Part shown: positions 54,519 through 64,000 of the stretch, in pieces
Layout of the letters: each line of letters opens with the position of its first letter
Numbering within the stretch: the stretch's first letter is position 1
From: Promethearchaeia archaeon
GTDB lineage: Archaea; Asgardarchaeota; Lokiarchaeia; Sigyniarchaeales; SOKP01
Assembly (NCBI GenBank): GCA_029856045.1
Contig: JAHQWG010000046.1
Location: 1 to 64,000, forward strand
Direction: 5' to 3'
DNA: 64,000 bases
Position numbers and translations under genes: made by a program
The notes under the pieces: generated by a model
The model's database searches: none
Told to the model about the DNA's origin: nothing
Seen by the model: the letters and a program-made list of their open reading frames with translations, nothing else

Positions 54519-55328
54519 TTAAATTCCTTTCGAAAAAAGATTCTTATGACATGAACAACATGGAATTCCAATTTTTATTTCATTTTGTAAATTATTGTCA
54601 ATTACTTTAGATTTTTTAATTATTTCTAACAAGTTTTCCCTTATTTTTATCAGATCAGGGTTATTACTTAAATAAAACTTTTTTAAATATGAAATATGAT
54701 TTTCTCTCTTACAAATTGGGCAGATTAAAAATAAATTTAAAAACTTTTGATAATATTTTCTTTTTTTACCTCTTAGTTTTTTCTCTAACTTAATAAAACT
54801 TGATTCTGAACCGAGGTTTTCAAGAATTTTACTTGCTAATTGGGTTAGTATAATTTTCTTTTTGATTCCAATATGAGAGGATAATAGAAAAAATTTTTCA
54901 ATTTGGTTGTCCTCAACAAATAGATTGATTTTATTATATAGTTCATCATGGATTATATCAGATTTATATCCTACTAAAAAGATTGGAATGTTATTGGTAT
55001 TATTTTTAATAATTCTTATCCAATAATACAAATTATTGAATAAATCATCTTCTGAAGCATCAAAAAACAGTAAGCACCCTTTAGCACCTCTGAAAAAGTT
55101 GGGGTATATTGAACGAAATCTATAGCTTCCATTTATATCCCAAATAGTCATTTTTAAGATATCTTCGTGTTCATTTGAACATTTTACAACTTTAATTGAA
55201 ACACCTATGGTTAAAGAAGATGTGTTATCAAAAGAATTTGAATATTGATCTATACTATTAAAAAAATCAAATTTACCAGAATTATATGATCCAACTGCTA
55301 TAACTTTAGAAATATATAATCCTGGCAT
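54519..55328 (-). CDS. Rab-like small GTPase with degenerate motifs and a C-terminal Cys-rich domain
   Basis: TIGV, IWDINGSYRFRSIYPNFFRGAKGCLLFFD; G1 GSYNSGKF; G4 GYKSD; CPIC...CCSC. Confidence 0.8.
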   Translation of the reverse strand: MPGLYISKVIAVGSYNSGKFDFFNSIDQYSNSFDNTSSLTIGVSIKVVKCSNEHEDILKMTIWDINGSYRFRSIYPNFFRGAKGCLLFFDASEDDLFNNLYYWIRIIKNNTNNIPIFLVGYKSDIIHDELYNKINLFVEDNQIEKFFLLSSHIGIKKKIILTQLASKILENLGSESSFIKLEKKLRGKKRKYYQKFLNLFLICPICKRENHISYLKKFYLSNNPDLIKIRENLLEIIKKSKVIDNNLQNEIKIGIPCCSCHKNLFSKGI

Positions 55329-55537
55329 ATTATATCCACGCGAATTAACTTAAAACATTTATAATACTTAACTCCAATCAAATTAATAAACATTTAACTA
55401 TAAAAATTTTAAGATTTTATTCATTTAATTGTTATCTTTGAAGTAATTCCTAATTTAATTGATTTTAATCATTAACAATTATTAATTTATATTCAAAAAT
55501 AATTTTTAAGCAATTTAATATAATAAAAAAAATAAGT

Positions 55538-56869
55538 TTAAAATTCAATTTTTGGAAAAATATGTTCTTCTTTACGTAATGGTTTGTACTTGAAGAATCG
55601 ACGTGATTCGCTATCTTCCAGCACTAGATTAGACCCACCGCCATGGACCATACAGTAAGGGTCAAGTATACCTATAGGGACGCTATACTGCCTAATGAAT
55701 CCACGGCCACCCATAGTTCGAAAACAGTGCACAGCCGCCTCAAAAGCTAATTCTGACGCAGCAACTTTTAAACCCATTGTTTGCTGAGCCATTAATTTTC
55801 CGCTTCCCAATTCTGGATATTTATCTATTTCTCTCGCGTAATTAATTAATGCTGCAATTAATAAATTTAGTTCCCGAATATTTTTAGAAATTGGGAATCT
55901 AATAACTTGATATTGGTGTAACTTTTTCTCAAATTGTTTTCTCTGAAGAGCATATGTGTGTGAATATAATAGTTTCTTCATTGCGTCACCAAGCGCTTCT
56001 GCACTAATGACAAGGCGTTCTTCTGTGAGCTGGTGGAACATTATATCCATACCTGAACCTTTTAGCATATTCTCTATAGGAATTTCTACTTTATCAAATA
56101 TTAAACGACTTACAAATGCATCTGTCATTCCGTAGGTTCTAACTCTACTCGCTTTAAAATTCTCTAACTGTTGATTTTCAGTGTCAACAATAATTGCTCC
56201 GATTGAGCCTTTATTAACTCGACCGTATAAAATTAAATATTTACAAATCATACCATTTGTTATAAAGACTTTTTTACCTTTTGCAATAACTTTATCTCCT
56301 TGGGTTTGGAGATTTAATTCCATTCTTGCGATATCACTACCTGCGTTAAATTCAGTCATAGCGGACGCACCAACTTCTCCATCCCCTGCAACAGGAACTA
56401 AGAATGTTTCCCATTGATATTCATTTGCTTTATAAGAAACGGGATTGCAATAAAGTGTACCTCCCGCTAAACGTCCCATTTCAATACTCCAATTCCCAGC
56501 TATATATCTTTCGCTTTTTTCTGACCATCTTCCACCGCATAGAGCAAAAGCGATGAGGATATTCCTCATTATTCTCCCAACTTCGTATTTTTCAGGATAA
56601 AGAACCGTGCTATAATATCCTTTCTCTGCCAATTTTTTCATTATTTTAATTACAATATCTTTTTTTTTATCTTGAGTTGGTTCCTCCACAAGATAATTTA
56701 ATTCTTCCAAAGTCCTCAAATCTTTATCAAGTTCTTTTTCTAAGAAATCATAAAAAGTAGCCAAAAATTCCTTTTCTTGCACGTTTAATAATGGGTTATT
56801 TAATAAGTCTAATTCTGGAACATATTTTTGTATTTGAATTGGTTTAAAGTCTCTTAATCTTGTATCCAT
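55538..56869 (-). CDS. Acyl-CoA dehydrogenase family protein (divergent)
   Basis: AMTEFNAGSD, GKKVFITNG, EERL, RKQFEKKL..YQ, TMGGRGF. Confidence 0.85.
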   Translation of the reverse strand: MDTRLRDFKPIQIQKYVPELDLLNNPLLNVQEKEFLATFYDFLEKELDKDLRTLEELNYLVEEPTQDKKKDIVIKIMKKLAEKGYYSTVLYPEKYEVGRIMRNILIAFALCGGRWSEKSERYIAGNWSIEMGRLAGGTLYCNPVSYKANEYQWETFLVPVAGDGEVGASAMTEFNAGSDIARMELNLQTQGDKVIAKGKKVFITNGMICKYLILYGRVNKGSIGAIIVDTENQQLENFKASRVRTYGMTDAFVSRLIFDKVEIPIENMLKGSGMDIMFHQLTEERLVISAEALGDAMKKLLYSHTYALQRKQFEKKLHQYQVIRFPISKNIRELNLLIAALINYAREIDKYPELGSGKLMAQQTMGLKVAASELAFEAAVHCFRTMGGRGFIRQYSVPIGILDPYCMVHGGGSNLVLEDSESRRFFKYKPLRKEEHIFPKIEF

Positions 56870-57005
56870 AATGATTTACACGTTTTTTATTAATTATAAA
56901 TAAATAAGGTTGATTTTAAGATACCATTATATAAAACGTATATAAAAATTAAAATTTAATTCTAAAAAGAAAAGTTGAATGAAAGAAAGAAGAATAAATT
57001 TATTA

Positions 57006-59402
57006 TTATAATGAACACTCTGTTCGGGCAATAATATCGTCTTGTGCATTTTGCGATAATTCGGTAAACAAAACAGAATAACCTGCAATTCTTACAACCA
57101 AACCTCTATATTCATCTGGATTTTTTTGAGCATCAAGGAGAATTTTTTTTCCAACAACATTGAATTGTACCTGGAAACCACCATCAGGTCCAAAAAATGT
57201 TCTTATCAGAGCCGGAAATAATTCTAGCTTTAAAGAATTCGGATGAAATGTCAAAATAAGCGAATTTCCGTTAGTCATTAAATGATTCTGAAGTTTACTG
57301 ACCGAATTAAGAATAGCTGTGGGACCATTTTTATCCATGCCATTTGAAGGGCAGAGACTAGTTGAAAGGACATCCCTTGATTTTCTTCCATTAGCAGAAG
57401 CACCTGTAAAGAAACCAAAAGCTAAATGAAATGATGTTGAGTAGAAACCAGGATTAAATTTTCCACCTCGATAATTTGTATGCTTTGTAATTTCATCACA
57501 ATATACTTTTACCACATCCATAGCAATTTGGTCAACATAATCATCATCATTGCCAAATTTTGGAACTTTATTAATAAATAACTGCCTCCATTCTTCTCCT
57601 TTTCTTCCTTGATAGGTTCCTCTATAATTCTTTCTGAGCATTTCCACTAAATCTTCAAATGGGAGAATATTTTCTTCAAAAACAAATTTCTTAATTACTG
57701 CAAGACTATCCACTACCGTAGCAAAGCCAACTAATTGTGGTCCAGTAAAGTCATATACTGCACCACCATTTGTTATATCAAGTCCTCGTTCAATACAATC
57801 ATCTGTAGTTGCAGATAAAAATGGCTGAGGATTAAGTTCGGAAATTGCTTTATCAAGGGCATTCATAGTTGAAACCATAAAATTAACAAAATATTTCATT
57901 TGATTAACAAATGCATCCCAAAGATCATCATAACTAGCAATTTTTTTATCATTTTTATATCCATATTCCCTTCTAGTAAACATATCAATTCCATTTGCTA
58001 ATGCTAATTCTAAACATTTTACGACATTAATTTGGTTTGCATTGGTTGACCCAAATGATTTATGTGGATGTTGCGGTTCAACACAGCCGATTGGCGCATA
58101 TTCACGAGCATCTTCAAGTGTAAAACCAAGATTTACAAGTCCTTTTATCATTACTTGATCATTAAATAAAGCAATACTTGCGCCCGATTTTATGGATTCT
58201 CCAACTTTAAAAAGAAAATCTTCTGGTGTCTCTTTATGAATTCGAACGGAAAAAGTTGGTTGAACAGTTTTTAAATTAGTATATGCGTCTAATAAGAGGT
58301 ATGATAATTCATTTGTTGCATCGTTTCCCTCACTGTCAACTCCTCCTATCGTTAAATTTTCTGCTATTGGGGGTCCTTCAGCAGCAACAATACCTTTACT
58401 TAGAAGATAATTCCACAATGTTGTTAATTTTAAAAAAAATAATTCAATTAGAAATTGTACTTCATCATTTGAAATTTCTCTTTCGCTTGTATCTTTTAAA
58501 TAATATGGGTATAAATATTGATCTAATCGGCCAATACTTATTGCAAAGCCACCATCTTCCAAGCCAGATATTAAATGAGTAAAATAAATAAGTTGAAGAG
58601 CCTCTTTAAATGACTTTGGTGGATTTTCAGAAATATTGTAACAAATTTCAGAAATTTCAAGAAGTTCTTCTTGACGTTTAGAATTTAATTCATTTTTCGC
58701 TAAATCTTTAGCTAAATTTGAAAATCTTTGAATAAAAGATCTTACTGTATTACAAACAATTATAACAGACTGTAAAAAAATTCTTTTTTTGGTATTTTCT
58801 GGAGTCGAATCAGAAAAATTCTTCATTTTTTCCTCAGCTTTTTGAATTAGACCATTTATTCCATATTTCAAAACATTTTCATGTCCAGGAAAAAAATGAC
58901 CAATGCCATTGGAAAGTTCGGTATCAACAATAAAAACAAGTTTTTCCATCATATCTATTTCATCAGAATTTAAATAAGTTAGAAACCTTGCTCGAACAGT
59001 ATGTTCTTCATTTTTCCAATAAGGAATTATCTCTTCCTTTAGGAATTTTCTCTCTTCATTCGATATGATAAGTGGTTGTACAGGACGACTCTCATAAGTA
59101 TCACAATCTTGTTCAATTGTATCAACTCGAATTTCGGGATATAATGGAGTTCCTACAAATTTAGTCGTTCGGTTACCAACAATAAATTCATTATCCCAAA
59201 TAATTATAGTCATATTAGATAAATAATGTTCCATAGCTTTTGCGAATCGAATTATTGGATTTTCTCCTTTTGTTTTTTTATATGATTCCGTGATTAATTT
59301 AGCTCTTTCCATACAAATTTCTTTCGATTGCTTCACAACTTTTTTTCTCATTTCTAGAGTTCTTTGCTTATAATTTAAATGGGAAACTTGTTCTAACTGC
59401 AA
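57006..59402 (-). CDS. Glycyl radical enzyme (PFL2/eliminase-type)
   Basis: SIGRLDQYLYPYY, IGCVEP, PKFGNDDDYVD, QFNVV, LVVRIAGYS. Confidence 0.92.
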   Translation of the reverse strand: MQLEQVSHLNYKQRTLEMRKKVVKQSKEICMERAKLITESYKKTKGENPIIRFAKAMEHYLSNMTIIIWDNEFIVGNRTTKFVGTPLYPEIRVDTIEQDCDTYESRPVQPLIISNEERKFLKEEIIPYWKNEEHTVRARFLTYLNSDEIDMMEKLVFIVDTELSNGIGHFFPGHENVLKYGINGLIQKAEEKMKNFSDSTPENTKKRIFLQSVIIVCNTVRSFIQRFSNLAKDLAKNELNSKRQEELLEISEICYNISENPPKSFKEALQLIYFTHLISGLEDGGFAISIGRLDQYLYPYYLKDTSEREISNDEVQFLIELFFLKLTTLWNYLLSKGIVAAEGPPIAENLTIGGVDSEGNDATNELSYLLLDAYTNLKTVQPTFSVRIHKETPEDFLFKVGESIKSGASIALFNDQVMIKGLVNLGFTLEDAREYAPIGCVEPQHPHKSFGSTNANQINVVKCLELALANGIDMFTRREYGYKNDKKIASYDDLWDAFVNQMKYFVNFMVSTMNALDKAISELNPQPFLSATTDDCIERGLDITNGGAVYDFTGPQLVGFATVVDSLAVIKKFVFEENILPFEDLVEMLRKNYRGTYQGRKGEEWRQLFINKVPKFGNDDDYVDQIAMDVVKVYCDEITKHTNYRGGKFNPGFYSTSFHLAFGFFTGASANGRKSRDVLSTSLCPSNGMDKNGPTAILNSVSKLQNHLMTNGNSLILTFHPNSLKLELFPALIRTFFGPDGGFQVQFNVVGKKILLDAQKNPDEYRGLVVRIAGYSVLFTELSQNAQDDIIARTECSL

Positions 59403-59638
59403 TTTAAATCACTAAAAATCGTCAAATTTTTATTTTAATTTAATAGATTAAATAAAACTATATAATTAATTGAATAAATAATTCTCGAAGATAAATATAT
59501 TTAATATATATATCAAAAATTGGTTGAAGATAAAAGAGTTTTTCACTAAAAATTTTAAAAATTTGATTAGTAGAAATATAACTGCTAATGTGAAAGGAAA
59601 GGGAAAAAAAAAGAGATTAAATAAATTTATTAATTTAA

Positions 59639-60232
59639 CTATAAAGTAAATCCTTCAGGTAATTCTGATTCGGGTGTTCCTACTGGGACCCACGAGATAT
59701 CCATAATAGTGTATGTTGGTTTTTTTGTTTGAAAGATTGGTAATACTCGCATACCAATCTTTGGTTCACCTACTGAAAGATAACCCATAAAGATTGTGCA
59801 TACATCTTTGAATTCCACATTAATAAATTTAATTGGCTTTTTTAATGTATTAAAGGCGCCTGATCGTTCAGTAATTATAAAAGAGTGTATCATTGCCGTT
59901 TTCTTTGCTATATCAGTTATATCTATTACCGTATTTTTTCTAAGACAATCAGGACAATAAATTCTGAATGGCATAAATATGGAATCTTTTGATTCACATT
60001 TAGGATTATCACATCTTGAAGCCATTAATTTTCCTTTACTAAGTGATTCAAAAAATATTGCTTCTCCGCCATAGCTATGAATATAAGTCATGTCTCGTGG
60101 ATTAGTTATTCCACATAGTTTTCCATTATCATCAAATATAGGTGTGTTAGGCTCTATTATATGAAATTTACCTTTAATTTTGTATCTGCCATTTTTTACG
60201 GAAACCCGTCCAACATCATTTTCGCTTTTCAT
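59639..60232 (-). CDS. DUF35-like Zn-ribbon/OB-fold protein
   Basis: FFESLSKGKLMASRCDNPKC...PFRIYCPDC...PKIGMRV. Confidence 0.85.
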   Translation of the reverse strand: MKSENDVGRVSVKNGRYKIKGKFHIIEPNTPIFDDNGKLCGITNPRDMTYIHSYGGEAIFFESLSKGKLMASRCDNPKCESKDSIFMPFRIYCPDCLRKNTVIDITDIAKKTAMIHSFIITERSGAFNTLKKPIKFINVEFKDVCTIFMGYLSVGEPKIGMRVLPIFQTKKPTYTIMDISWVPVGTPESELPEGFTL

Positions 60233-60238
60233 GATTTT

Positions 60239-61660
60239 TTAATCCTCCTTTAGTAGATGATTTGGATGCATTAAAATTGTAGCAGTAACATGGGACCCGA
60301 CACCAGCGTGACTGATAGCTAATCCACGTTTAGCACCCTTAACTTGTAAATCAGTCCAGTCCTTAGGTTTTTCTCGACCAAATTTCTTCCATTTCTTTTC
60401 ATCACCGTGTATTTCAGCCCATCGATTCCATATATGATATCCGATTTCAGCAATTTGCATTAAGCCCGTTGCACCAACAGCATGCATACATCCAATTAAA
60501 CCTCCGGAAAGGTTGCTTGGTAAACGCCCAGGTTTGCCAGTTTTAGGATTTGTATGATAACCATCTCCAGATTCAATATAATCACGACCTTCACCATATG
60601 GACGAAGTCCCACATCTTCATATGATTGAATATCACTAATTGTAAATGCATCATGTAGTTCAATTACGTCCAGATCTTCGCATGGATCAACAACTCCTGT
60701 CATATTATATGCATAGTAAGATGCAATACGTGCAGCCAAAAAGCTAGAAAAACCGGGATATCGATCTCCTCCTGGAAATCTCTTTCCTAAATCATCATAT
60801 AGTCCAGGTTCCTCATTGGGTAATAGTGGTATTTTCATATCTCGCCGATCTGCTACACGTAGAGTATGACTTCCTGCACCTATCCAAATTCGTAAAGGAT
60901 TATCTGTAAGTTCATAAGCTGTTTTTTCATCACAAACAACTCCACAAGCAGCTCCTACGCTCATTAAACAACAATCTAAAACTCGAAGCGGATATGCTAC
61001 AACTGGCGAGTTAATTACATCTTCAACAGTAATTTTCATACCACCATGTGCATAGGGATTCATCCTTCCATACCCGCGATTTTTTACAGCAATTTCAGCC
61101 ATAGTTTTTCGAAAAGAATCTTCAGCTTTCCCAAATATTTGCCAATATCTCTGTGCCATAACAGCGTAATAACCTGTATATATATGACCGAGTGGTGTCT
61201 CCCAATCTTTATCTGCTGCACATGCAATCAGGTGATTTCCTTCATCAGTAGGAACTTCATCCATTCTTTCCCATCCCATAGCTAGAGCACAATCGCTGTA
61301 ACCAGAAGCTACTGCTTTAATAGCTTCCCAAATAGTTGAACCCCCTGTAGCTCCCCCTGTTTTTACTCCAATAGTACCAAGAGGATCTAGACCAAGCCGA
61401 TCATGAATAACTGCTTCTCCTAAAAGTTGATCTCCGAAATGATCCGCAAAATGCCCGTAATATGCAGTATGTATATATTGTTTTAATTCAGCAGGAGTCA
61501 TTTTTATAAAATCTGCCGCTGCAGTAAATGCTTCAATACATAGTTCTTCAGTTCGTAAAGTGGGAAAGGCACGACCAAATCTTGACATACCTGATGTTGC
61601 TAAATATACTGGTCGCGCCATTTTTGGAATCTTAAGTTGTTTATCACTAAATTTAATCAT
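60239..61660 (-). CDS. Thiolase-fold protein lacking the N-terminal catalytic Cys
   Basis: VKTGGATGG, GWERM, IELHDAF, NLSGGLIGCMHAVGATG. Confidence 0.85.
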   Translation of the reverse strand: MIKFSDKQLKIPKMARPVYLATSGMSRFGRAFPTLRTEELCIEAFTAAADFIKMTPAELKQYIHTAYYGHFADHFGDQLLGEAVIHDRLGLDPLGTIGVKTGGATGGSTIWEAIKAVASGYSDCALAMGWERMDEVPTDEGNHLIACAADKDWETPLGHIYTGYYAVMAQRYWQIFGKAEDSFRKTMAEIAVKNRGYGRMNPYAHGGMKITVEDVINSPVVAYPLRVLDCCLMSVGAACGVVCDEKTAYELTDNPLRIWIGAGSHTLRVADRRDMKIPLLPNEEPGLYDDLGKRFPGGDRYPGFSSFLAARIASYYAYNMTGVVDPCEDLDVIELHDAFTISDIQSYEDVGLRPYGEGRDYIESGDGYHTNPKTGKPGRLPSNLSGGLIGCMHAVGATGLMQIAEIGYHIWNRWAEIHGDEKKWKKFGREKPKDWTDLQVKGAKRGLAISHAGVGSHVTATILMHPNHLLKED

Positions 61661-61812
61661 TTAAACTCATCTTTTGTAGTTAGTTTGAATTTTTTTTAAA
61701 GTATGTAGTAAAATTAATGATTATATTAAAATTAAGTTAAAGAATTAGATTAATTATTCTTTGAATATTTAACTAATTATCTTTAAATCTTTTAAAAAGT
61801 TGAAAAGTTAAA

Positions 61813-63348
61813 ATGGTTGAAGTAGACACTTTTTTTTGGTGGAGTGATGAACAGAAAGAATTTGCGAAAAAAGTTGCTCAATTTGTAGAGGATAATTTAG
61901 AGGAAGCAGAATATTATTTTTGGAAGCAAAAATTCCCTCATTCAATAGTGAAAAAAGTTGCAAAAGAAGGCTTTTTTGGACCTGGCGTTCCAAAACAGTA
62001 TGGAGGATTGGGATTAGGAGCCACGGGAGGATGCATTGCAGCCGAACATTTAGGGAGTTTATATGCAGTTGGACATGTTTTTACAGTATCAATGTTGGCA
62101 GGATTAGAACAAATTTTAAGATTCGGTACCGAAGAACAAAAGGAGACATGGTTTCCCTCTGTTGCAAATGGCTCGGAGATAGGGGCAGTATGTATTACGG
62201 AACCATTTGCAGGGTCGGACGCGGCAAATGTTATGACAACGGCAACTAAAGATGGAGACGAGTGGGTTTTAAACGGTAAAAAGAGAATGATAACTGGTGC
62301 TGGAGTTGCTGATAGATATTTTGTATACGCTAAAACAAGCGACGATCCGGCAATCCGAAAGCAGTACGCACATATAACCAGTTTTGTGGTCAAAAAAGGC
62401 ACTCCAGGATTTAGTCTCGAAAAGATAAATCCTCTTATAGGTTTTGATAATGCTCCTAATGGTTATCTAGATTTTGATAACGTTAGGATCCCCGATTTCA
62501 ATAGGGTTGGTGAAGTAGGGAAAGGATGGGCTGTTATGATGGCAGCTTTAAATTTTGAGCGGTTGATTGGCTCTGCAGTTTTAATAGGCGGAGTTAAGGA
62601 TATCATCCAATTTATCTTCCACTATACTAAACGCAGAATTCAATTTAATAGGCCCATTAATCGTATTAGAAACATTCAGTTTGACATTGCTGATATCATC
62701 ACTAAATATAAAATGGCGAGGCTATACTCATATCACACTGCACATCAACTCGATTCTGGTATGGAGCCGATGATTGAAGCGTCAATTGCGAAGCTAATGA
62801 ACACTGAGTATCTTGTAGAAATAACAAGAAAAGCCATACAGATTTGCGGTGGTGACGCTCTTACCAAATTTTATCCCCTTGAAAGAATGTATAGAGAAGC
62901 GAAAATAGGTGAAATAGTCGCTGGAACTTCTGAAATCCAAAGATTGATTATATATCGCTTTTCGACAATGCTTCCGACGTGGAATAAATCTTTAAAATTC
63001 AGATGGAACGATGAGGTAAATGCTCCTTTAATATCAAAGAGAGATTCCAGGTTTAAAGGTTTAGAAATTAACGAAGAAAATTTATTAAAAGTTATTGCGC
63101 ATGATTATAAGATAAACCCTGGAATTTACATGACTTTAGATGATGTCAGAGAAGATATCGGGGGAAGTAGAGTGAAAATAAAGCAGGGTATTGAATCTCT
63201 TGAAAATCAAGGACTGATTGTTTGTCATCGGGATCGAAGCGGAAAGATTGGTCTTGTTAAGGCAACATATAAAGGACTTTCAAAAGCCTTTCCAAAAGAG
63301 TATTATAGATGGTTTCCTCCTTGGTATGATGAAGCAGACAAGTTTTAA
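61813..63348 (+). CDS. Acyl-CoA dehydrogenase with a C-terminal wHTH-like extension
   Basis: ITEPFAGSD, LNGKKRMIT, NFERL, RIQF, IQICGG, IVAGTSEIQR, then ~120 extra aa. Confidence 0.88.
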   Translation: MVEVDTFFWWSDEQKEFAKKVAQFVEDNLEEAEYYFWKQKFPHSIVKKVAKEGFFGPGVPKQYGGLGLGATGGCIAAEHLGSLYAVGHVFTVSMLAGLEQILRFGTEEQKETWFPSVANGSEIGAVCITEPFAGSDAANVMTTATKDGDEWVLNGKKRMITGAGVADRYFVYAKTSDDPAIRKQYAHITSFVVKKGTPGFSLEKINPLIGFDNAPNGYLDFDNVRIPDFNRVGEVGKGWAVMMAALNFERLIGSAVLIGGVKDIIQFIFHYTKRRIQFNRPINRIRNIQFDIADIITKYKMARLYSYHTAHQLDSGMEPMIEASIAKLMNTEYLVEITRKAIQICGGDALTKFYPLERMYREAKIGEIVAGTSEIQRLIIYRFSTMLPTWNKSLKFRWNDEVNAPLISKRDSRFKGLEINEENLLKVIAHDYKINPGIYMTLDDVREDIGGSRVKIKQGIESLENQGLIVCHRDRSGKIGLVKATYKGLSKAFPKEYYRWFPPWYDEADKF

Positions 63349-63502
63349 ACATTACTTTTTATCTTTTTTTTTATTTTTAGTATATATATTATAATTTTCA
63401 AATATATTAAAAGAGCTTTAAAACCTTTTTAATTCATAAAAAATTTATAAAATAAATCAATATATTCTAATTATTCCTTTTATCAATAAGTTTTTCATTT
63501 GA

Positions 63503-64000
63503 GTGAATGATTTGGAACATAACGTTGAAAAAAAAACCGAAGATAAGAAAAGATATCTTAGCGTAGATGTATTTAAAGGATTGACCATTGCTTTAATGGT
63601 TTTTGTAAATTCAGTCCAATTATTTGATAGTGTTCCTGCTTGGACTAAACACGCAGGAGATTATGGGCTTACCTATGCAGATCTTATTGCTCCATTCTTT
63701 GTTTTCATGATGGCACTCAATTTTAAAACATCATTTCAGCGTCGATTAGAACAAAAAGGAAGGTCAAAAACCTATATTCACTTTATACGGAGATATTTAA
63801 TACTTATTGGAGTTGGACTTCTAATAAGCATTAATGAGGATATGGGAGTTATTTATTTTAGATGGGGCACACTGCAAGTGCTTGGTATATCGGGTCTTAT
63901 ATTATTACCATTAATCGAATTAAAACCAGAGATAAGGTTGATTTTTGCATGTGTAGGTCTGGTTTTTTATCAAATTCTAATAGAAACCGAAGTGAGTGAA
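63503..64000 (+). CDS. Heparan-alpha-glucosaminide N-acetyltransferase-like membrane protein (3'-truncated; not in the ORF track)
   Basis: Translated by hand: KRYLSVDVFKGLTIALMVFVN...WTKHA...GLTYADLIAPFFVFMM...WGTLQVLG; start GTG 63503 or TTG 63512. Confidence 0.8.
   Translation, partial: MNDLEHNVEKKTEDKKRYLSVDVFKGLTIALMVFVNSVQLFDSVPAWTKHAGDYGLTYADLIAPFFVFMMALNFKTSFQRRLEQKGRSKTYIHFIRRYLILIGVGLLISINEDMGVIYFRWGTLQVLGISGLILLPLIELKPEIRLIFACVGLVFYQILIETEVSE

Follow-up and report, generated by a model that had tools for sequence, protein, structure and literature searches.

The 64,000-nucleotide (nt) stretch analyzed here (positions 1-64,000 of contig JAHQWG010000046.1, hereinafter the window; working label G000:C46, where G000 is the host genome) encodes, on the minus strand at positions 57006-59402, a glycyl radical enzyme (GRE) of 798 amino acids (aa) that is surrounded by genes for proteins predicted to handle acyl-coenzyme A (acyl-CoA) compounds. 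We consider it likely that this gene encodes an orphan GRE of the eliminase/isomerase class that was relocated by a lineage-specific rearrangement into a separate acyl-CoA module. An earlier note on this DNA had described five genes in this region, and their types and strands, as well as the gaps of 136 and 236 nt, were reproduced by open reading frame (ORF) calls, Pfam searches and, for the DUF35 protein, hhalign. The same note had proposed that the GRE feeds the adjacent thiolase-fold, DUF35 and acyl-CoA dehydrogenase (ACAD) proteins as a single pathway; this joint pathway is unsupported because the GRE gene normally adjoins housekeeping genes and is relocated only in a single genus (g1), the partners otherwise occurring apart.

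Membership in the pyruvate formate-lyase (PFL)-like GRE superfamily is evident from the Pfam matches (PF02901, PFL-like, 673.6 bits; PF01228, Gly_radical, 87.4 bits) and from the glycine motif R-I-A-G-Y, which starts at residue 771 and conforms to the superfamily fingerprint RVxG[FWY]x6-8[FL]x4Qx2[IV]x2R (PMC13450708), with Ile in place of the Val that is present in 22 of the 121 orthologs. Gly774 in this motif is the radical site, and the Cys loop GCVEPQ, which starts at residue 439, contains a single cysteine, Cys440, and Glu442. In the alignment of the 121 orthologs, these three residues are invariant, and so are His169, His445, Thr453, Asn454 and His659. The CXE motif, in which a lone Cys has a Glu two residues after it, is the mark of GRE 1,2-eliminases and isomerases (PMC13450708), and the Cys440-Val-Glu442 triad found in every ortholog bears out the earlier description of a GCVEP loop of the eliminase type, as opposed to a fumarate-adding enzyme or a true PFL. 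In glycerol dehydratase (GD), Glu435 is the base and His164 is the acid (PMC13450708); His169 of the window GRE aligns with the latter. With this complement of residues, the GRE looks catalytically competent.

Comparison with the NCBIfam models places the GRE within this class without assigning it to any family of defined function. The protein passes only TIGR01774, the model of the PFL2/glycerol-dehydratase subfamily (752.6 bits against a cut-off of 678.2). Five equivalog models, those for two sulfopropanediol dehydratases, HypD, PflD and CutC, scored 492-563 bits against cut-offs of 1000-1109, a shortfall of 440-560 bits. Specifically, the match to the trans-4-hydroxy-L-proline dehydratase HypD (NF043068) was 558.5 bits against 1100, and that to the choline trimethylamine-lyase CutC (TIGR04394) was 492.5 bits against 1050, with a G-I-G-H loop where CutC has G-G-D with its Asp. 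PFL itself can be dismissed given the single Cys instead of two adjacent ones and the low score of TIGR01255 (164.8 bits against 994). Among the solved structures, the best matches were 1r8w (glycerol dehydratase, 589 bits), 5i2a (propanediol dehydratase, PD, 531 bits), 9rco (507 bits) and 2f3o (Archaeoglobus PFL2, 495 bits). In the maximum likelihood tree, which included GD, YbiW, PflD, CutC and HypD sequences from annotated records as well as GREs of the host genome, the clade of the window GRE forms a group of its own with 100/100 support and a long stem, and its position relative to GD, YbiW, PflD, HypD and CutC is a polytomy. The nearest Asgard homologs outside the family of the host in GTDB are 40-43% identical and resemble PFL2 at the pocket positions. 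Literature searches found no paper on this GRE clade. The protein thus falls in no characterized cluster, and the earlier view of the GRE as uncharacterized stands.

The closest characterized relative by structure, GD of Clostridium butyricum (DhaB1; 1r8w/1r9d), together with the propanediol dehydratase 5i2a, shares with the window GRE the full-length fold, the same Gly loop, the GCVEPQ loop with the catalytic Glu, and the equivalent of His164; overall, it is 39.7% identical to the enzyme of C. butyricum. These likenesses, along with the top rank of the two structures and the retained counterpart of Glu435, are what one would expect if the GRE were a plain B12-independent glycerol or 1,2-propanediol dehydratase. 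The substrate pocket argues otherwise. The diol-binding residues common to GD, PD and 9rco are located in the G-H-S strand and in W-H-D following the Cys loop, and both sites are altered: His281-Ser282 of GD is replaced by Phe286-Ala287 (Ala287 is retained in 120 of the 121 orthologs) and W-H-D447 by Ser452-Thr453-Asn454. In addition, Ala347 occupies the position of GD Tyr339, where PD and 9rco have Phe. All three replacements are fixed in the clade, and His659, the counterpart of GD Asn645, is conserved there as well. Moreover, unlike the C. butyricum locus, the window GRE is accompanied by no adjoining activase, alcohol dehydrogenase or aldehyde dehydrogenase, and in the tree it falls in an archaeal clade of its own, apart from GD. 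A diol dehydratase is therefore a very unlikely identity for this protein.

The PFL2 protein of Archaeoglobus fulgidus (2f3o) is another relative with partial resemblance in the pocket: it is an archaeal, single-Cys protein, and both contain the strand x-A-I-S-x-G-R-x-D-Q-Y and, beyond the Cys loop, the segment S-F-x-S-x-(D/N)-A. It differs in scoring lower than GD (495 against 589 bits), in having Asp at the position of Asn454 of the window clade, and in its GCVEI loop in place of GCVEPQ. The role of the A. fulgidus protein is debated and its function is unknown (PMC13450708). Taken at the level of conserved residues, then, the window GRE represents an uncharacterized clade within the eliminase/isomerase class, whose pocket has no counterpart among the characterized members.

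In a mechanism modeled on that of glycerol dehydratase, the radical would be placed on Gly774 by an activase from another locus and would then move to Cys440, which would abstract hydrogen from a hydroxyl-bearing carbon; Glu442 would deprotonate that hydroxyl, and His169 would protonate the neighboring leaving group. Because the residues that hold the diol are replaced, the substrate would be a compound other than glycerol or propanediol.

The phyletic distribution of the clade is narrow. Relatives with 66-94% identity form more than 120 sequence clusters in public data, and where a source is named, its label is that of Asgard archaea; some of the source names are Thor-, Hod- or Odinarchaeota, labels that cannot be reconciled with the GTDB-based sample. 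In that sample of 150 genomes, chosen evenly across the phylum, matches of at least 64% identity were detected only in the GTDB family of the host, in 22 of its 25 genomes, with matches in other families being at 37-43%. The gene appears to be a self-contained unit that would encode a radical 1,2-eliminase or isomerase, an ortholog of which is kept by most members of one Asgard family (Promethearchaeota/Loki-type).

The genomic neighborhoods were surveyed in 61 genomes of this family, of which 41 contain a GRE ortholog, 43 the gene for the ACAD-like protein and 26 the thiolase-like gene. The GRE occurs in genera g1, g2, g4, g5 and g56, and none was found in g3 or g54. Wherever the thiolase-like gene is present, it lies next to the ACAD-like gene (26 of 26 genomes). 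By contrast, the GRE gene adjoins the ACAD-like gene in only four of the 61 genomes (G000, G125, G144 and G164), all from genus g1, and is next to the thiolase-like gene in three; the remaining 19 genomes with both a GRE and a thiolase-like gene have the two on different contigs or 1 Mb apart. Conservation of the neighborhood across Asgard genomes had been set beforehand as a test of the proposed cluster, and the cluster logic fails because the neighborhood of the GRE is not conserved beyond genus g1.

Elsewhere in the family, the GRE gene has another, recurrent location. On long contigs, each of four orthologs with 66-75% identity lies in the order DNA methyltransferase-GRE-class I tRNA synthetase-ScpB-x-SMC, and a fifth is found in the same methyltransferase/tRNA synthetase/ScpB/SMC block, with an activase gene directly after the GRE gene; outside genus g1, some 30 genomes of the family likewise have the GRE gene beside those for the tRNA synthetase, ScpB and SMC. 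Contig C27 of the host genome retains the tRNA synthetase-ScpB-x-SMC order, with a DUF4256 gene and a spacer of about 0.7 kb at the GRE site. Conversely, the module exists without the GRE: in G170, the thiolase-like, DUF35 and ACAD-like genes have the same order and strand as in the window with no GRE gene among them, and G162 and G065 contain a divergent form of the ACAD-like/thiolase-like module. G144, of genus g1, retains the GRE-ACAD-like arrangement, with two other thiolase-like and two DUF35-like genes upstream in place of the pair, and a metagenome contig carrying a 79%-identical ortholog (L021) retains it with an unrelated upstream gene. (The replacement cassette of G144, L024 on contig C8, 11380-14836, also occurs within a few kb of the pair in G162 and G065.) The likely scenario is that, in the ancestor of genus g1, the GRE gene left its site beside the class I tRNA synthetase, ScpB and SMC genes and, bringing along its upstream region and T-rich tail, became inserted into an ACAD-like/thiolase-fold/DUF35 module that already existed.

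The sequences flanking the GRE gene are compatible with such a transfer. The start codon, TTG (59400-59402), aligns with the ATG of orthologs outside genus g1 and is preceded at 6-7 nt by a Shine-Dalgarno-like GTGA; TTG is shared within the genus (G000, G144 and L020), and all other orthologs examined start with ATG. About 130-170 nt before the start, within the 236-nt non-coding region upstream of the gene (59403-59638), are conserved in G000, G144, L020 and L021 despite three different upstream neighbors, and this region likely contains a promoter and a leader of the GRE gene's own. No credible small ORF was found in it. An Rfam search of positions 55000-64000 at E<=1 returned no match, and the predicted fold of the leader RNA was no better than that of shuffled sequences (z=0.41), so there is no riboswitch clue to the substrate of the GRE. 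On the opposite side, in the 136-nt spacer that separates the GRE gene from the ACAD-like gene (56870-57005), a T-rich run resembling an archaeal terminator directly follows the stop codon and is itself followed by an AT-rich, TATA-like segment. The spacer was compared with its counterparts in G144, L020 and L021 and with the regions upstream of the ACAD-like gene in G162, G065 and G170, and the AT-rich segment is partly recognizable in G162, which has no GRE. We infer from these flanks that the GRE gene, equipped with a separate promoter and terminator, was inserted as a cassette upstream of the promoter of the ACAD-like gene; the doubt about co-transcription voiced in the earlier note was well placed. 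Following the move, the gene stayed under purifying selection, given that the ratio of nonsynonymous to synonymous substitutions (dN/dS) is 0.15-0.18 in comparisons with three relatives. The catalytic mechanism, transcription apart from the module and the direction in which the gene moved are likewise inferred.

Several observations, on gene order as well as on activation, weigh against the interpretation of the GRE as a relocated orphan. The adjacency of the GRE and ACAD-like genes, along with a spacer of about 136-137 nt, is kept in the four g1 genomes and in L021, indicating that this pairing outlasted some divergence. Of the 26 genomes with the thiolase-like gene, 22 also carry the GRE, and the other four are only 71-81% complete. 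Furthermore, the GRE, ACAD-like, DUF35 and thiolase-like genes are all on one strand, so that read-through may occur. The shared strand and the persistent adjacency would also be expected if, in genus g1, the relocated GRE had been recruited to the acyl-CoA module, with its carbonyl product, or the CoA ester thereof, being processed by the Cys-less aldolase, the DUF35 protein and the ACADs. In favor of such a route, the products of GRE eliminases are aldehydes or ketones, and an aldehyde and an acyl-CoA are what thiolase-fold aldolases of the Ltp2/Sal type handle (PMC12329534). Nevertheless, we regard recruitment as unlikely: the GRE occurs without the thiolase-like gene in 19 of the sampled genomes, several of which are 98-100% complete; the thiolase-like/DUF35 pair occurs without a GRE in three non-Asgard contexts examined; in G144 and L021, the pair is not found beside the GRE gene; the GRE gene keeps its own upstream region and T-rich tail; and Pfam searches of the 55.5-63.3 kb stretch detected no CoA ligase, CoA transferase or acylating aldehyde dehydrogenase.

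With regard to activation, no activase was found in the window, where the best radical-SAM match scored 27.8 bits against a cut-off of 174. Six GREs are encoded in the host genome, together with four activases that score above the TIGR02494 cut-off (contigs C44, C8, C29 and C51), each of which adjoins another GRE, with none on C46; hence no activase is dedicated to the window GRE, which shares the lack of an adjoining activase with the GRE on C27. The loci of the other five GREs are C51:20386-23562, C44:110134-113629, C8:26749-32663, C29:22953-27425 and C27:263709-266108. The GRE on C51, with its adjoining activase, passes the HypD equivalog (1343.8 bits); the four on C44, C8, C29 and C27 pass none, and those on C8 and C29 are paralogs with 71% identity. 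For the activase encoded beside the L022 ortholog of the GRE, no ortholog was found in the host genome, where its best match (44%) is already paired with another GRE. (A 38-aa ORF devoid of Cys lies just upstream of the activase-adjoined GRE ortholog, at 8754-8870 in L022 and 558-674 in L023; no counterpart was found in the window.) We assume that the window GRE is activated in trans. The absence of a nearby activase and of an ortholog of the L022-type activase could also mean that the relocated gene, having lost its dedicated activase, is decaying or silent. This appears highly improbable given the intact frame, the retention of all catalytic residues and the low dN/dS values; besides, four of the five orthologs examined in the tRNA synthetase/ScpB/SMC context also have no adjoining activase, and the four activases of the host could act in trans.

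The module into which the orphan GRE gene appears to have been inserted consists of three genes on the minus strand. The first encodes the 443-aa ACAD-like protein (55538-56869), which we consider divergent because only the middle and C-terminal ACAD domains were matched in Pfam (41.6 and 58.4 bits); the best solved structure scored only 87.6 bits. Some orthologs of this gene contain in-frame stops, six in G170:C3:108313-109566 and one or two in others, including G180:C61:10187-11482, G129:C1:11559-12857 and G177:C7:44554-45840, which suggests that this partner may be decaying in some lineages.

The second protein (473 aa; 60239-61660) has a thiolase fold of the SCP-x type, with the N- and C-terminal thiolase domains both matched in Pfam. 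It was aligned to the structures 6esq, 7yvy and 7pxp; Gly occupies the position of the nucleophilic Cys of 6esq, an archaeal thiolase, and HDAF that of HDCF, with the His of the G-A-T-G motif retained. The absence of Cys noted earlier is thus confirmed and, because both the nucleophilic and the acid/base Cys are missing, no standard thiolase mechanism is possible. The protein scores 669.7 bits with NF004982/PRK06365, below the cut-off of 695, and the model of the benzoylsuccinyl-CoA thiolase BbsB (NF053628) is not approached (135.5 bits against 750).

The third protein (197 aa; 59639-60232) showed only a weak zinc-ribbon match in Pfam (E=0.048), but an hhalign comparison with Pfam-confirmed DUF35 proteins of the same and related genomes yielded a probability of 97.7% (E=2e-12, 130 columns), so that it can be assigned to DUF35 (zf-ChsH2 plus OB_ChsH2_C) as a divergent member with a zinc ribbon and an OB fold. 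It has four invariant cysteines, Cys74, Cys79, Cys93 and Cys96, and an N-terminal extension of about 45 aa. An AlphaFold2 model built on a 6-sequence alignment had a mean predicted local distance difference test score (pLDDT) of 49.8, a quality insufficient for searching folds.

Contigs labeled Thermoplasmata, Cytophagales, Planctomycetes, Gammaproteobacteria, Marinimicrobia and others encode proteins that share 77-87% identity with the thiolase-fold protein. In the loci examined, a DUF35 partner of 197-199 aa is always encoded directly downstream of the thiolase-like gene, with 66-67% identity between the Asgard and the Cytophagales or Thermoplasmatota versions; in the Cytophagales, Thermoplasmatota and Marinimicrobia contigs, the three contexts examined, the pair is not accompanied by a GRE. 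A 417-aa gene divergent from the Cytophagales thiolase-like gene was considered as a possible ACAD-like partner and showed no similarity, so that, in this example, the ACAD-like partner lies outside the module. Within the Asgard family, gene order points to the ACAD-like/thiolase-like/DUF35 trio being a conserved, separate functional unit.

The Ltp2 aldolase also lacks the thiolase nucleophile. Like the Ltp2-ChsH2(DUF35) and Sal-Shy aldolases, the module proteins (although not the GRE) combine an SCP-x-type thiolase fold with a DUF35 partner in an acyl-CoA context. The thiolase-fold aldolases Ltp2 and Sal bind DUF35 domains and handle an aldehyde and an acyl-CoA (PMC12329534). There are also differences: the window protein matches Ltp2 (6ok1) with only 49 bits and there is no fused MaoC hydratase, and in contrast to the steroid-specific Ltp2/Sal, the window pair shows its high identity across contigs labeled as many phyla. 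By this resemblance, aldol cleavage of the Ltp2/Sal type would be the best precedent for the module, which probably constitutes a complex for handling acyl-CoA, its thiolase fold being used for a reaction other than thiolysis.

The combination of a GRE, an SCP-x-type thiolase fold with DUF35, and an ACAD side by side recalls the toluene degradation gene set bss/bbs (BssA; the thiolase/DUF35 pair BbsAB; the ACAD BbsG), the analogy drawn in the earlier note. Single-Cys GREs of Asgard archaea have been interpreted as hydrocarbon-activating enzymes, partly from gene-type neighborhoods, and similar archaeal GREs, including PflD of Archaeoglobus, have been annotated in the literature as alkyl- or benzylsuccinate synthases (PMC8163825). 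The single loop Cys of the window GRE and the bbs-like types of its neighbors would seem to invite the same assignment. To our knowledge, however, Cys-x-Glu is not a feature of X-succinate synthases (BssA/AssA/MasD), and the window GRE has Glu442. Furthermore, the structures of benzylsuccinate synthase (4pkc, 267 bits) and methylalkylsuccinate synthase (9o8u, 260 bits) are among the weakest non-PFL matches to it, and no Cys-rich small ORFs were found in either gap (136 and 236 nt), consistent with the previously noted absence of small fumarate-adding subunits. The analogy likewise breaks down for the partners: BbsB keeps the nucleophilic Cys, whereas the window thiolase-fold protein is devoid of it and fails the BbsB model, and the juxtaposition is confined to one genus. 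A succinate synthase activity is thus extremely improbable, and a measure of caution seems due in reading function from such contexts, the hydrocarbon-like neighborhood in the window apparently being a genus-level accident of gene order.

Every PFL-like GRE of known function is bacterial, and the archaeal clades are an open gap (a 2026 review, PMC13450708). The clade described here is a clean and well-populated target (more than 120 sequence clusters) in which the catalytic core is intact and the pocket distinctive. It is conceivable, although on balance we doubt it, that this clade, with an active-site set found in no characterized GRE (His169, Phe286-Ala287, Ala347, His445, Thr453-Asn454 and His659), acts on a new substrate by radical elimination or isomerization and, in genus g1, is also wired to an aldolase-type acyl-CoA module; if so, no archaeal PFL-like GRE before it would have had its own function. 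The pair of the Cys-less thiolase-fold protein and DUF35, an unusually conserved, uncharacterized two-protein unit, may be the more rewarding object of study.

The fifth gene of the region (61813-63348, plus strand) is transcribed divergently from the module and encodes a canonical three-domain ACAD of 511 aa. All three ACAD domains were matched in Pfam, the match ending at residue 382, with about 125 C-terminal residues beyond the ACAD domain. An ortholog (94%) adjoins the module in G144 but not in G162, G170 or G065, so that this gene is a neighbor of the module in genus g1 only. Directly downstream of the ACAD-like gene, a Ras/Roc-family small GTPase is encoded (54519-55328; Pfam Ras, 68.8 bits), and it is kept in that place in G144 and L020. 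Finally, just past the window, at C46:64628-66715, there is a second set of genes that encode a thiolase-fold protein (410 aa), a canonical DUF35 protein (163 aa) and an SCP2-domain protein (121 aa).

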